From: Escherichia phage AV103
DNA: 39,735 nt
Reading direction: 5' to 3' (one strand)
Sequence record: OR352934.1
Position 1 is the stretch's first letter, and the number at the start of each line of letters is the position of its first letter. Position numbers and translations under genes: made by a program. Shown here piece after piece: positions 32,905-39,735 of the stretch. The notes beneath the pieces are model-generated. The model had not been told where the DNA came from, did no database searches, and saw only the letters and a list, made by a program, of their open reading frames with translations.

Positions 32905-32948
32905 TCAATCATAAAGGCCACTCTTGCGAATGACCTTGAGTTTGTCCC
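32905..32948 (-). promoter_or_regulatory. RNase III hairpin (R1.1-like)
   Basis: AATCATAAAGGCCACTCTTGCGAATGACCTTGAG between the two phi1.1 promoters. Confidence 0.55.
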
Positions 32949-35702: not shown

Positions 35703-36782
35703 TCAGCCCATTAATCTTGCGTCAAGTTGCTTGTCGATGTTGAGCGGAAGACCGTTAGCGATAGCCGTGCGGTCAGCTTGGACCCAGTGCGCCGCTACTC
35801 GTTCCTCAAGCGCCTTAAAGTCCTTAGCGAGCATGTTGACCCAGAGCATAGCGTTATCGGTCCTTCCTAGTACATCTACAGCTCTCTCATGGTTACGTCG
35901 TTCTTGACGTTCAGCCATTCGCCACGCAGCAACCATTCGCTTGTGCTTCGCTTGGTGTGCTTTACGTGCCTTACGGTTATGGCGCTTTACTTTGCGTGCC
36001 TCCAATCGACCCACATGACGTGCTTTTCGTTCCTTAGCGCGGTCGATTTCTTTCTGTCGTGCGACTTCCTCGACTTCCTTGATGAGTTCCTCTGGGTCAA
36101 TACTGAATGCGCCACCGTCTTTCTTCTGCGAGAATGACACGGGGTCGGTAATGAATGGTGTATCATCGTCGCTGAACATGATGTTCCCGCTGTGCATGTC
36201 GAACGAAGCGATGCCCTCAAAGAACTTGCGGATTAGCTTGCAAGTTTCGACGAACTCGCCATCCCATCCAGTCAACCCATCATGCTCATCTGATTTGTAG
36301 TCAATGATGTCACTTGCAATCTCAGCGTATTTATAATGCTCATCGTTATCGTAACGGTCGCAATCGTTCAGTGCATCAAGTACCACCGTATAGCATCCAG
36401 CGTGACGCTGTACATCGTAGACGTTAGGGATACCAGCGCGACCTTGATACATGCGGCAGAATGCGGTATACGCAGCGCCTGAGTCCTCTTTCTTAAAGCC
36501 CACCTTAATCACCCTGTTAGGCAGCAGCGGGTGGCTATAAGCAGCCGAGAAGTGACCATTACCGAGCATCTTAAACCCCGCGTCAGTCGTGAGACACTTC
36601 AAGGTAGTCCACCAGTCTTGAAACTCAAGTGCCTGATTCAGTTCGGTTAGCTCTCCATCGCGTGTTTCGCTGTTGACCATCTCGACCAGTAAGTCGATAA
36701 GCATCCCTTGACGCTTGTCAAGTTCACAGATTGGAAGTGCTTTGATTGCGTCGATAGCGTTCATGATGTCGATAGCGTTCAC
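35703..36782 (-). CDS. 0.7: Serine/threonine protein kinase / host shut-off protein, about 359 aa
   Basis: Kinase-like N-terminal half and basic C-terminal half; start inferred at GTG 36782 with SD GGAG; alternative ATG at 36764. Confidence 0.85.
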
Positions 36783-36801
36783 TTTGTGTATTCTCCAAAA
36801 G

Positions 36802-36939
36802 TTAGATGTTGTTGAGCTTGCGGTTGATTCGCAGTTCACGCTTAAGGCGTTCGATTCGCTGTTTCATTGCGAACCCATCAGGTGTGCATACAGTTGCCCC
36901 GTTGGGCGTGTGTATAGGCATAACGTAGTGTTTCAGCAT
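36802..36939 (-). CDS. Gene 0.6-like small protein, 45 aa
   Basis: [45 protein letters not shown]; ATG overlaps the preceding ORF stop (ATGCTGA). Confidence 0.5.
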
Positions 36940-37061
36940 TTGCGCATTGCTCCCGTGACGGTGCAAGCCACCAAGTAAGCGCCTACAGCTACACCCAAAG
37001 ACTTCCCAAAGGATGCGCCTACAGCTAGACCTAGAGCGGTGAGTAGTCCGATAGTAAGCAT
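36933..37061 (-). CDS. Gene 0.5-like small hydrophobic membrane protein, about 42 aa
   Basis: [42 protein letters not shown] with SD GGAG; downstream of an RNase III hairpin. Confidence 0.45.
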   Translation of the reverse strand: MLTIGLLTALGLAVGASFGKSLGVAVGAYLVACTVTGAMRKC

Positions 37062-37087
37062 ATGCATTACTCCAATTCAAGTAAAGT

Positions 37088-37135
37088 GATAATCATAAAG
37101 GCCACTCGCTAGGAGCGACCTTGAGCCTATCACTT
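37088..37135 (-). promoter_or_regulatory. RNase III hairpin (R0.5-like)
   Basis: AATCATAAAGGCCACTCGCTAGGAGCGACCTTGAG. Confidence 0.55.
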
Positions 37136-37267
37136 GCTACCGTACATCGCTTTGCGTGCTCGATATGTCTGTGCTAATTGTGCCATGCAGTACCCGAAAG
37201 AAGCACCATAAGCCATCGCTACGCGGTACGTCTGCATCATCTCTTTTGTTAGACCATATTTGACCAT
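37130..37267 (-). CDS. Gene 0.4-like small protein, 45 aa
   Basis: MVKYGLTKEMMQTYRVAMAYGASFGYCMAQLAQTYRARKAMYGSK; ATG 2 nt after the ocr stop with SD GGAGGA. Confidence 0.5.
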   Translation of the reverse strand: MVKYGLTKEMMQTYRVAMAYGASFGYCMAQLAQTYRARKAMYGSK

Positions 37268-37269
37268 GA

Positions 37270-37647
37270 TTATAAATCCTCCTCCCCCTCTTCGCAGTCT
37301 CCCTCTTCCTCTTCCTCTGCGACTTCCTCAAGGTACTCGTTCAGCAAGTCCTCAGCAACTTCCCAGAGGTCAATCGTGAGTTGCTCATAGATGCGAGCTT
37401 GCAGGATGCGAATTGTGTCCGTGGTGTCTGGCATCAGACCGGCATCCTCGAACGCACGATAGATACCGTCGCTTGCCATTACGCTAAAGACCTCAGAGTA
37501 GTGACGCGGAACTACACTATCGGCAGCCTCATGAACAGCATACGATAGATAATCAGGGTCACGGATAGCATCATGATGGATGATTTCTTTCAGTATTGCA
37601 TAAGCGCGGTCGAAAACGTTGCTGTAAGTCATGTTAGACATAGCCAT
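37270..37647 (-). CDS. 0.3: Ocr, DNA-mimic inhibitor of type I restriction-modification, 125 aa
   Basis: [16 protein letters not shown]...[40 protein letters not shown] plus polyacidic tail. Confidence 0.9.
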
Positions 37648-37679
37648 CTTGTGTTACCTCATGGTGTTATTAATCAATG

Positions 37680-37726
37680 CTAATCATAAAGGCCACGCAT
37701 CGTGCATGACCTTGAGTTTAACACTT
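37680..37726 (-). promoter_or_regulatory. RNase III hairpin upstream of ocr
   Basis: ATCATAAAGGCCACGCATCGTGCATGACCTTGAG; near-duplicate of the hairpin upstream of the SAMase gene. Confidence 0.55.
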
Positions 37727-38183
37727 ATTGCACTTGCCAGCGGCGACCGAACTCATCAATCGTGAAGCAGCCTTGCAGCGGTGCGCCTTTAGGCACTTCT
37801 TGGAAACTACCTTGCAGACGTTCGGCCTTATACCCATCGATACCTTTAGCGTACACCAGACCAGCCGTGTGAGTCTGTGATTTGTATACCAGTACGCAGT
37901 CTTGCTCCCACTCATTGCAAGCTAAGCGAGCGACCTGTAAGACCTGTTCTTTGTCCTTGCAGCGTACACGAACCGTCTTTTCCTCAGTCGGTGCACTTGC
38001 GATTGCCTCACGATAGCATCCGGTCAAATCGGTTGACTCAACGGAGCCATAAAGACCCGGTGCGGCACGTAAGGTGCTAACCATGTGGCGGTGTCTGCTC
38101 ATATTCACCTCATCGTCGAGGTTGGAACGGAAAGCTGACACCAGTACATAGAAGACGTTAGCAGGCTCTTTAGTGAAAATCAT
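37725..38183 (-). CDS. S-adenosyl-L-methionine hydrolase/lyase (T3-type SAMase), 152 aa
   Basis: 152-aa ORF MIFTKEPANVFYVLVSAFRSNLDDEVNMSRHRHMVSTLRAAPGLYGS... as I recall for the T3 SAMase; SD GAGGT. Confidence 0.8.
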   Translation of the reverse strand: MIFTKEPANVFYVLVSAFRSNLDDEVNMSRHRHMVSTLRAAPGLYGSVESTDLTGCYREAIASAPTEEKTVRVRCKDKEQVLQVARLACNEWEQDCVLVYKSQTHTAGLVYAKGIDGYKAERLQGSFQEVPKGAPLQGCFTIDEFGRRWQVQ

Positions 38184-38214
38184 TTGGTGTTACCTCATGT
38201 TGGTTCGTTAAGTG

Positions 38215-38262
38215 AATATCATAAAGGCCACGCTTTAAGTGCGACCTTGAGTTATTCGCTTA
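38215..38262 (-). promoter_or_regulatory. RNase III hairpin (R0.3-like) upstream of the first early gene
   Basis: ATCATAAAGGCCACGCTTTAAGTGCGACCTTGAG. Confidence 0.55.
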
Positions 38263-38369
38263 TACGGCACACTCAAGAGCTATTTACCAGATTGTTAAAG
38301 AGCGTCTTTGGTCAGGTTTCGTTAGACCGCATCACCTTTCAGTGTGGTGACTCACTGTTCCGTCATTTC

Positions 38370-38405
38370 GTGGTACATCGTACCGTGTTTACTTCATGTT
38401 GTCAA
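38370..38405 (-). promoter_or_regulatory. Host sigma70 early promoter A3
   Basis: Sense strand TTGACA (38400-38405 rc) - 17 bp - TACGAT (38377-38382 rc). Confidence 0.85.
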
Positions 38406-38479
38406 CCGTTTTGTTTCACCTTATGTGCCGTGGTGCGCTTAAGTCACCTAGAAGACACCGTGCATCCGGTTGACGCTAC

Positions 38480-38516
38480 GTTGTGTATCTTACTGCATGT
38501 TACTTCATGTTGTCAA
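38480..38516 (-). promoter_or_regulatory. Host sigma70 early promoter A2
   Basis: Sense strand AAACAGGCATTGACAACATGAAGTAACATGCAGTAAGAT: TTGACA - 18 bp - TAAGAT. Confidence 0.85.
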
Positions 38517-38609
38517 TGCCTGTTTTTCGTATGACTTATCAGGCTGTCTACTTATCCGGTTGACCCCGGTATCTCAGGGAGTGGCTTTAAGGCCGTTGTC
38601 CCGTTGACG

Positions 38610-38644
38610 AGATGAATAGTAACCCTTAAGACTCTTTAAGTCAA
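38610..38644 (-). promoter_or_regulatory. Host sigma70 early promoter A1
   Basis: Sense strand AAAAAGAGTATTGACTTAAAGAGTCTTAAGGGTTACTAT: TTGACT - 17 bp - TACTAT. Confidence 0.8.
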
Positions 38645-38694
38645 TACTCTTTTTTTAAATTCTTTAATTTCTCTTTTAAGGTATCTTTAAGTAG

Positions 38695-38717
38695 TCTCCT
38701 TATAGTGAGTCGTATTA
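38695..38717 (-). promoter_or_regulatory. T7 RNAP promoter (phiOL, left-end replication promoter)
   Basis: Reverse complement TAATACGACTCACTATAAGGAGAC between the repeat array and A1. Confidence 0.8.
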
Positions 38718-38930
38718 AAGACGATGGATGAAGATTATCTCTTTATAGGTAACAACAAGGCGTCTATAGGATAGGCTTTAGGATGGTCTTTAGGCTGGTC
38801 TTTAGAAGATACTTTAAGATGGGGATTGACTCATGGTGTCTTTAGGTGTAGTCTTTAGGTTGTAGACGGTAGGAATGACTTTAGGAGGTGACTTTAGGAG
38901 GATACTTTAGGAGGCTGTAACAGATAGGGA
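38718..38930. repeat. Left-end array of degenerate CCTAAAG-type heptamer repeats
   Basis: Plus strand shows about 10 copies of CTTTAGG / CTTTAAG / CTTTAGA at irregular 10-25 bp spacing. Confidence 0.75.
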
Positions 38931-39090
38931 CACAGAGAGACACTCAAGGTAACACTCAAAGGTAAACCATCGGGTCATCCCAACCTTAAGTAACCCTCAA
39001 GGTCAACCTTCGGTTGACTTTAGGTGATTGGCTGGGCTTTAGGGACCCCCCCCCCCCTATGGGGGAACTTTGGGTCCGTACACTGTGAGA
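38931..39090. repeat. Direct terminal repeat (single collapsed copy); physical genome end at about 39090
   Basis: Reverse complement begins TCTCACAGTGTACGGACCCAAAGTTCCCCCATAGGGG...CCTAAAGCCCAGCCAATCACCTAAAGTCAACC, matching the T7 left terminus; 160-bp extent assumed by analogy. Confidence 0.6.
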
Positions 39091-39270
39091 TAGTCACTCA
39101 GATTTTTATGGTATATTTTAAAGGACCCTCTAGGAACTCCCTAGGACCTCTCTAAGACCCTCTTTAGGTGACACTGATAGGATGGCCTATCTTTAGGTAT
39201 AGACCTTAGGATAGACCATTAGAGGCTCTTTATGGGTATACCTTAGGACTTGACTCTATAGGGATGAAGT
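39091..39270. repeat. Right-end array of CCTAAAG / CCTAGG-type short repeats
   Basis: CTTTAGG, CCTTAGG and CCTAGG motifs recur between gene 19.5 and the terminal repeat junction. Confidence 0.6.
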
Positions 39271-39329
39271 GGTGTGATGCAATCATACCGCTGAATCCCT
39301 CGGTGAGCCATCAGTCGGTCAGGAAGACC

Positions 39330-39479
39330 CTAATCGCTACAAGTGAGTATAGAGCAAACGGTAGACTCCAGTGAACCGAGGTCTCCAGTAAGCGATGCGT
39401 ACCCAAGGGCAGCACAAAGTACCATAAGAAAGCGGTAGGTGACTCTATGCCGCAATAGGTTCAACAATAAGCGGAACAT
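39330..39479 (-). CDS. 19.5: Gene 19.5 small protein, 49 aa
   Basis: SD GGGAGGAGACTA-ATG; MFRLLLNLLRHRVTYRFLMVLCAALGYASLTGDLGSLESTVCSILTCSD. Confidence 0.7.
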   Translation of the reverse strand: MFRLLLNLLRHRVTYRFLMVLCAALGYASLTGDLGSLESTVCSILTCSD

Positions 39480-39633
39480 TAGTCTCCTCCCTTTATGTTG
39501 GTCTTTAAGTTAAGGTGATATTAATACAATATAATCACCATTCTTAGAGGTCACTTTAGGTACACTACTATGCATACTTTATGCACTCTATAAGTATTCA
39601 TTCAGTATCTATATAGTAACCTTTCGTCCCTCC

Positions 39634-39656
39634 TCTCCCTATAGTGAGTCGTATTG
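39634..39656 (-). promoter_or_regulatory. T7 RNAP promoter (phiOR, right-end promoter)
   Basis: Reverse complement CAATACGACTCACTATAGGGAGAGGA between gene 19 and gene 19.5. Confidence 0.85.
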
Positions 39657-39735
39657 ATTTCTCTTTATATTCAATAACTTAAAAATCGACCTTCCGTGGT
39701 CTCTAATGAATCCCTATGCAATCCTAGTGCATAAA

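Follow-up and report, generated by a model that had tools for sequence, protein, structure and literature searches.

We analyzed the genome of Escherichia phage AV103 (sequence record OR352934.1; 39,735 nucleotides, called the window below), in which two anti-restriction genes of different kinds are found next to each other at positions 37270-38262. The window is a complete genome of the T7-like type (Teseptimavirus) and its genes are on the minus strand. The first of the two genes encodes an S-adenosylmethionine (SAM) lyase of the T3 gp0.3 type, SAMase (152 aa, 37725..38183, minus strand), and the second encodes a divergent lineage of the DNA-mimic protein Ocr (125 aa, 37270..37647, minus strand). 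The two genes neighbour each other on the same strand, with an RNase III-type hairpin between them, and the host promoters lie upstream. The T7-type left end (TCTCACAGTGTACGG..., at approximately 39090), then a phiOL-type T7 promoter and then promoters A1, A2 and A3 precede this region, which therefore opens the early (class I) region. The three host sigma-70 early promoters (38377..38644, minus strand) were found by a consensus scan with 9-10 of 12 matches (A1 38644-38616, A2 38516-38487, A3 38405-38377).

An earlier note on this DNA had described the 152-aa protein as SAMase-like, and the comparisons confirmed this assignment. The protein matched PF23780 (S-AdoMet_lyase, 2e-43; 148 bits, cut-off 28) with residues 13-151 on profile positions 1-132 of 133, and it also matched phrog_2226 (5.6e-55). 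It shares 146 of 152 residues with the T3 enzyme (PDB 7ock chain L). In comparison with T3 gp0.3 (PDB 7ock/8bb1), there were six substitutions in AV103: C23D, S62A, A79E, A81V, N83Q and P124Q. E67 and E68 are kept (...APTEEKTV...). E68 of the T3 SAM lyase is the substrate-positioning glutamate, equivalent to E69 of Svi3-3, and matters by mutagenesis, as described together with the chemistry of SAM lyases (PMC7877911). An in-frame internal start, M28 (38102), has its own GAGGTG and is the counterpart of the 0.3B product annotated in T3. The ratio of nonsynonymous to synonymous substitution rates (dN/dS) of the SAMase gene was 0.08-0.09 against T3, Salmonella phage vB_SAg-RPN15 (RPN15) and Escherichia phage P694. 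From the 96% identity to the T3 enzyme, AV103 SAMase is predicted to cleave SAM to methylthioadenosine (MTA) and homoserine lactone, and like T3 gp0.3 it probably blocks MetK. As in T3, the gene is the first one after A1-A3, the internal 0.3B start is kept and both flanking hairpins match the annotated T3 sites. Unlike in T3, it lies in a T7-like backbone, and Ocr is found downstream where T3 has genes 0.6/0.65.

SAM lyase genes of the T3 type are labelled 'SAM-dependent methyltransferase' in PHROGs (phrog_2226) and in many RefSeq phages (NC_071009, NC_028863, NC_048180, NC_047942, NC_003298). This label is misleading, as the T3 structure is that of a SAM lyase, and it conceals the pairing of SAMase with Ocr from keyword searches.

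The same note had named the 125-aa protein Ocr, and this also proved correct. We observed a match to PF08684 (ocr, 7.5e-45; 152 bits, cut-off 25) over profile positions 1-101 of 101 and a match to T7 Ocr (PDB 1s7z, 1.8e-47) across residues 1-115. An AlphaFold2 model (mean predicted local distance difference test score, pLDDT, 86.8) had helices at 8-25, 31-45, 50-57 and 78-121. In Foldseek this model aligned with eight solved Ocr chains (template modelling score, TM, 0.77-0.94; root-mean-square deviation 1.3-1.8 A), and no folds other than Ocr were returned with E below 3. The four-helix Ocr fold is thus predicted to be intact in AV103. T7 Ocr structures comprise 1s7z and complexes with type I methyltransferase, BrxX/PglX, AriA and RNA polymerase. 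Ocr of AV103 and T7 gp0.3 have a common fold, the leader GAGGTAACACAAG-ATG and an acidic composition, and in both phages a small open reading frame (ORF) in the gene 0.4 position and an R0.5 hairpin follow downstream. The differences are that Ocr is the second gene in AV103 and the first in T7, that its upstream hairpin is of the T3 R0.5 type and not of the T7 R0.3 type, that its acidic tail is longer, and that the identity is only 71%. We did not find an exact record of either the SAMase or the Ocr sequence in exact-sequence protein look-ups.

Each gene is preceded by a hairpin and a leader, as had been noted before. The hairpin string reported earlier on the plus strand (ATCATAAAGGCCACG...GACCTTGAG) is the reverse complement of CTCAAGGTC...CGTGGCCTTTATGAT. 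In a pattern scan, the motif CTCAAGGTC-N-TGGCCTTTATGAT was found in four copies in the window (38218-38251, 37683-37716, 37092-37125 and 32908-32940), on the minus strand only and only between early genes, while 0 copies were expected by chance. Three of the copies belong to the locus, all on the minus strand. The bulged hairpin 5' of SAMase is of the T3 R0.3 type (38206..38266, motif 38218-38251; -20.2 kcal/mol, z -2.4). The hairpin between the genes is of the T3 R0.5 type and overlaps the SAMase stop codon (37676..37725, motif 37683-37716; -21.3 kcal/mol). The third one, of the T7 R0.5 type, closes the message of Ocr and the ORF in the gene 0.4 position (37080..37141, motif 37092-37125; -25.3 kcal/mol, z -3.3). 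In each of the three, the fold places an asymmetric internal loop between a lower and an upper stem. Core 38219-38251 matched the annotated R0.3 of T3 with one mismatch, core 37684-37716 matched the annotated R0.5 of T3 at 33 of 33 positions, and core 37093-37125 matched T7 1438-1470, also at 33 of 33 positions. T7 1438-1470 is reportedly the R0.5 site of Dunn and Studier 1983, cleaved near nt 1468.

Covariation was assessed on 30 distinct hairpin sites from the window and related phages, with pairs counted on the named structure. We observed that 92.8% of cells were paired, compared with 79.8% in shuffles (0 of 500 shuffles reached the observed value) and 34-50% in slid controls with partners shifted by 1-3 columns. 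Compensatory changes on both sides were present in 10 pairs. A scan of 36700-39735 against Rfam at E <= 1 gave no family, and the hairpins are without a curated model. On these comparisons the three hairpins are ordinary RNase III processing signals of the T7 group, with cleavage predicted.

The translation-initiation regions also share an exact motif. There are exactly two copies of CATGAGGTAACAC in the window, compared with 0.07 expected, and each lies 3 nt 5' of one of the two ATG codons: before SAMase it lies at 38187-38199 and is followed by CAA and ATG (region 38184..38199, minus strand; a 0.3 leader of the T3 type), and before Ocr it lies at 37651-37663 and is followed by AAG and ATG (region 37648..37663, minus strand). 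The two 79-nt leaders (38184-38262 and 37648-37726), which had been called near-identical, were the same at 62 of 79 positions (shuffled controls: mean 44, maximum 52). The relationship is therefore real, but the description was too strong. The similarity lies in three blocks of 11-16 nt that match exactly and surround divergent stems, and the upper stems of the two hairpins differ (GCACTTAAAGCGTG and ATGCACGATGCGTG). The Shine-Dalgarno block GAGGTAACAC, which had been taken for a local feature, is the normal gene 0.3 leader of T3-type SAMase genes (T3, RPN15, Ebrios) as well as of Ocr genes (T7, JeanTinguely, 13a, P694, A7). The leader GAGGTAAC(A/G)CAAG-ATG is found before Ocr in T7, JeanTinguely, 13a, P694 and A7 as well, and in P151 it reads ...ACACA. 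The R0.3 and R0.5 of T3 are paralogous sites. The resemblance of the leaders is explained by this paralogy and by GAGGTAACAC being normal for both types of gene.

A 22-kb stretch of the AV103 backbone was approximately 95% identical to phages EmilieLinder_Bas103, AnnaIndermaur_Bas104 and JeanTinguely (94-96% of length; all Teseptimavirus). Pairwise and sliding identity changed sharply along the early region. The stretch 38500-38290 was 93-98% identical to T7 and JeanTinguely and about 80% identical to T3. From approximately 38268 to 37693, the sequence was 92-97% identical to T3 and RPN15 and had no counterpart in T7 or JeanTinguely. Downstream of approximately 37670 the T7-type Ocr leader and gene follow. 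The left recombination junction (38269..38285, minus strand) is located just upstream of the R0.3 hairpin, in a spacer common to T3 and T7; the last T7-like base that differs from T3 is 38285, and the similarity to T7 stops at 38270. The right junction is CCTTTATGATTA (12 nt, 37681..37692, minus strand), on the 3' side of the hairpin and common to R0.5 of the T3 type and R0.3 of the T7 type, and no T3-specific base lies downstream of 37693. From 37679 onward there is a match to Ocr leaders like those of phage 13a and of the metagenome contig L037, and the second half of the Ocr leader is CATTGATTAA....

Judged by these alignments, the inserted unit is a cassette consisting of the T3-type R0.3 hairpin, the leader, SAMase and the R0.5 hairpin, which was acquired and did not arise by local duplication. 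The earlier note had suggested acquisition or duplication by recombination at the conserved leader. The first part stands, with crossovers at or next to the hairpins, while the second does not, since the hairpins equal R0.3 and R0.5 of T3. We consider it likely that a T3-type SAMase module recombined into a T7-like early region which kept its Ocr, and that the two genes are expressed and act as proposed below. A module of the T3/phiYeO3-12 type (R0.3, 0.3 leader, SAMase, T3 R0.5) would have entered through a left crossover immediately 5' of R0.3, in the conserved spacer, and a right crossover in which R0.5 of the donor paired, via CCTTTATGATTA, with the non-allelic R0.3 of the recipient. Because of this pairing the resident Ocr would have been kept rather than replaced.

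We used a fused SAMase and Ocr protein as a query for other phages with both genes. Among 1032 records which held either gene, both were found close together in nine distinct phages. These were Escherichia phages P151 and P694 and Shigella phage vB_ShiP-A7 (A7) of Berlinvirus, RPN15 of Teetrevirus, Escherichia phage Ebrios of Teseptimavirus, Stenotrophomonas phage IME15, and Aeromonas phages KFSA9, avDM11-UST and PZL-Ah1. In IMG/VR the partner gene was present at 2 of 24 Ocr loci and at 3 of 20 SAMase loci, all of them from the same isolates as the deposited tandem phages. T3 and T7 themselves carry just one of the two genes each, as the earlier note had stated, and double carriage is not routine. 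The rarity which that note implied does not hold, as at least nine deposited phages are already annotated with both genes. The arrangement is uncommon but it is not new. In the papers searched the gene 0.3 locus is described as one gene or the other (PMC8594841, PMC11680406, 10.1101/2023.02.27.530186), and both ORFs are listed, but not commented on, in the paper on vB_ShiP-A7. Literature searches gave no paper that explicitly discusses the presence of both genes in one phage.

Like AV103, the deposited tandem phages have both genes adjacent at the start of the early region, with an RNase III-type hairpin between them in the sequences examined, and in RPN15 the same T3 R0.3 and R0.5 hairpins flank SAMase. 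None of them was close to AV103 over both genes: with the 1.2-kb query, P151 was 79% identical over 81% and RPN15 90.5% identical over 65%. Ocr of RPN15 and of Ebrios was only 43-44% identical to AV103 Ocr. A7 has the reverse order, with Ocr, then the hairpin, then SAMase. In Ebrios and IME15 a small ORF separates SAMase from the Ocr-like protein, and in the three Aeromonas phages there are additional hypothetical genes under the fused-query match. The Ocr-like protein of Ebrios (L033, 1600-2124) and of IME15 (L046) has 174 aa; it is approximately 50 residues longer than T7 Ocr and 43-48% identical to it.

Taken together, three SAMase lineages and four Ocr lineages are combined among the tandem phages, one of which has the genes in the opposite order. 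Because the lineages are mixed and one order is reversed, their sequences point to several independent assemblies and not to one ancestral pair. Other changes at the same place were also observed. Shigella phage ESh2 (Teseptimavirus) has a 95% identical SAMase behind R0.3 of the T3 type and is without Ocr, which is a replacement and not an addition. In Escherichia phage 13a (L034, EU734174) gene 0.45, and not SAMase, is the first early gene ahead of Ocr. From ESh2, 13a and A7 we conclude that hairpin-bounded cassettes are added, swapped and reordered in this group.

Three other origins of the tandem were weighed against recombination of a T3-type module. A local duplication of the leader module within the phage, with SAMase then landing between the copies, would account for the 62 of 79 shared leader bases in three exact blocks. 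A true hairpin duplication does exist in phage 13a, where nearly identical R0.3 hairpins of the T7 type surround gene 0.45 (287-316 and 551-577). In AV103, however, the upper stems are not alike, one corresponding to the annotated R0.3 of T3 and the other to its annotated R0.5, and the shared Shine-Dalgarno block is found in T3 and in T7 separately, so this origin is extremely unlikely. We regard as equally remote that T3-like and T7-like phages which occurred together were fused during assembly, at hairpin sequence common to both, to give a chimeric junction. Here the cassette is indeed bounded by sequence conserved between both phage groups, and the window resembles a circularised assembly with an odd run of 12 G (39046-39057). 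Yet only 12 nt are shared at the right junction, too few for k-mer joining, and isolated phages have the same architecture. The nearest Ocr among 5.8 billion proteins (P0001, 95% identical) is encoded on an 845-bp metagenome scaffold (L036), which carries the 3' end of SAMase and the T3 R0.5 hairpin upstream of Ocr, and its DNA was 91.7% identical to window 37895-37279. This identical junction, with the same rare Ocr lineage in an independent sample, argues against a chimera and for a natural arrangement. Somewhat less remote, but still quite improbable, is that the ancestor of the T3/T7 group already had the tandem, with SAMase lost in T7-like phages, Ocr lost in T3-like phages and the old state kept in AV103. 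Such a history would fit the occurrence of the tandem in three named genera (RPN15 in Teetrevirus, P694, P151 and A7 in Berlinvirus, Ebrios in Teseptimavirus) and the GAGGTAACAC leader of both gene types. It does not fit a SAMase cassette which is 92-97% identical to T3 while its flanks switch sharply to T7-like sequence (about 80% to T3), nor the mixing of different SAMase lineages (81-97%) with four Ocr lineages (43-96%), nor the reversed gene order of A7, nor the closest backbone relatives, which have Ocr only.

A further alternative concerns the fate of the pair and not its origin. One of the genes could be a redundant passenger en route to loss, so that the pair would be a transient intermediate of recombination. 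The published targets overlap, with type I restriction-modification (R-M) and bacteriophage exclusion (BREX) systems reported for both proteins (10.1101/2023.02.27.530186), most IMG/VR loci lack the tandem (present at 2 of 24 and 3 of 20), and amino-acid change in Ocr was raised in codons 9-66 (see below). Against this, both ORFs are intact and of full length, the predicted fold of Ocr is intact, and dN/dS between the window and L036 was low for Ocr (0.08) and for the SAMase fragment (0.10). By these ratios purifying selection has acted on both genes ever since they were paired and both are being kept, and we find a passenger unlikely. Two further metagenome contigs from ENA (L037 and L038, 3-212) encode an Ocr 78% identical to that of the window, preceded by the end of an ORF which is not SAMase (69 aa called). 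This ORF may be another kind of first-slot gene.

In sequence, the Ocr lineage of AV103 stands apart from the rest of its family. Ocr proteins of the T7 type, those of the tandem phages P694, P151 and A7 included, were mutually 88-96% identical, whereas AV103 Ocr was only 71-75% identical to them. There were 20 differences from the T7-type cluster which are fixed in both AV103 and L036. In seven of them an acidic residue of the folded part is lost, with no gain to offset it (E17A, D27A, D33Y, D36Y, E65A, D97V and E110A, numbering includes Met1). AV103 Ocr has 32 D+E and 7 K+R, compared with 34 and 6 in T7, part of the charge being shifted to the tail. Several changes fall at positions conserved in 31-37 of 37 diverse homologues, and D36 is D in 37 of 37. 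In codons 9-66 dN was 0.22-0.24, compared with 0.03-0.055 within the T7-type cluster, while dS was similar. We also considered a mosaic origin, with a more distant donor for the middle of Ocr. It was not supported: dS of codons 9-66 against T7 was 0.39, no higher than within the T7-type cluster, although the counts are small.

In mutants of T7 Ocr, activity survives the removal of 5-6 charges from a single patch but not the combined removal of 10 or more when patch 59-67 is among those changed (PMC3439906). On account of these mutants, activity of AV103 Ocr against restriction is likely but not assured. The divergence fits either relaxed constraint or retuning. We are doubtful about a more specific proposal, namely that Ocr of AV103 and L036 is a retuned DNA mimic and not a drifting copy, which went through a burst of amino-acid change in helices A-C after the pairing, with loss of the seven acidic residues that mimic phosphates and replacement of D36, and then came again under purifying selection. 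If this were true, binding of Ocr could shift, for example to BrxX or RNA polymerase over type I methyltransferases, or Ocr could evade an Ocr-sensing system such as PARIS AriA while the SAM lyase covered type I restriction. The charge-reduced Ocr lineage is the sole element that might repay experiments.

Following the T7 paradigm, host RNA polymerase would start at A1-A3 and read through both genes, and RNase III would cut the early transcript at the three hairpins. Cleavage would yield one mRNA for SAMase and another for Ocr and the gene 0.4-position ORF; both would carry a strong ribosome-binding site (GAGGT) and be protected by a hairpin at the 3' end. As judged from homologues, the lyase would then cleave SAM and probably block MetK, and Ocr would fill the DNA-binding groove of the same enzyme classes (type I R-M, BREX), so that the two proteins would hit the same defences by independent routes. 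T3 SAMase acts against BREX and type I R-M (10.1101/2023.02.27.530186). By homology AV103 Ocr would be a dimer inhibiting type I R-M and BREX methyltransferases. A layered defence from SAMase and Ocr is plausible because of the published activities of T3 SAMase and T7 Ocr.

Promoter B of E. coli type, annotated in T3, has its -10 (TACAAT) inside the end of gene 0.3. In AV103 the corresponding sequence is TGCAAT (37727-37732), through a synonymous change of GTA to GTG. We rejected promoter B as an additional Ocr promoter, as its -10 is TGCAAT and the consensus scan called nothing there.

Several points weigh against recombination of a T3-type module into an Ocr-bearing early region and against the function proposed for the pair. 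The donors are deduced from relatives, T3 and T7 themselves not being the parents, and at a few junction bases (38264-38269, 37680) the window departs from both. Any extra transcription of Ocr from the weakened promoter B is doubtful. The loss of seven acidic residues and the departure from residues conserved in the family mean that full anti-restriction activity of Ocr is not guaranteed. As the targets of SAMase and Ocr largely overlap, the benefit of having both is unproven.

Downstream of Ocr, a 45-aa ORF occupies the gene 0.4 position (37130..37267, minus strand; phrog_5058, 3.2e-20), and it is expected to be co-transcribed with Ocr. Its nucleotide identity was 85-93% to ORF033 of RPN15 and only 37-48% to T7 gene 0.4, therefore it is not of the T7 gene 0.4 type. 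The family phrog_5058 is unannotated as to function. The block of Ocr and this ORF was overall nearest to LNA7, 3A_8767, JB01 and 13a (82-85%). The window is a circular permutation, in which the late right end (a phi-OR-type T7 promoter at approximately 39655-39630 and a 49-aa ORF at 39330-39479) joins the T7-type left end directly at approximately 39090. A single copy of the terminal repeat was seen in the stretch read (38925-39735 and position 1 onward). In the terminal-repeat region, GGGGG of T7 (CCCCCATAGGGGGTACC) corresponds to the run of 12 G in the window (39046-39057, minus strand). This run could reflect a true difference in length, or it could have arisen during assembly, from a homopolymer error or from end joining.

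In summary, the proteins and hairpins of this locus are textbook elements of T3 and T7, and the understanding of anti-restriction is unchanged by them. AV103 corrects the common either/or account of the gene 0.3 locus (e.g. PMC8594841, PMC11680406). It also provides a case, at base resolution, of conserved RNase III hairpins serving as recombination joints, at which cassettes were added (AV103, 13a), swapped (ESh2) or reordered (A7). As a natural double-inhibitor phage, AV103 is suited to asking whether SAM depletion and DNA mimicry add up against type I R-M, BREX and Ocr-sensing systems.

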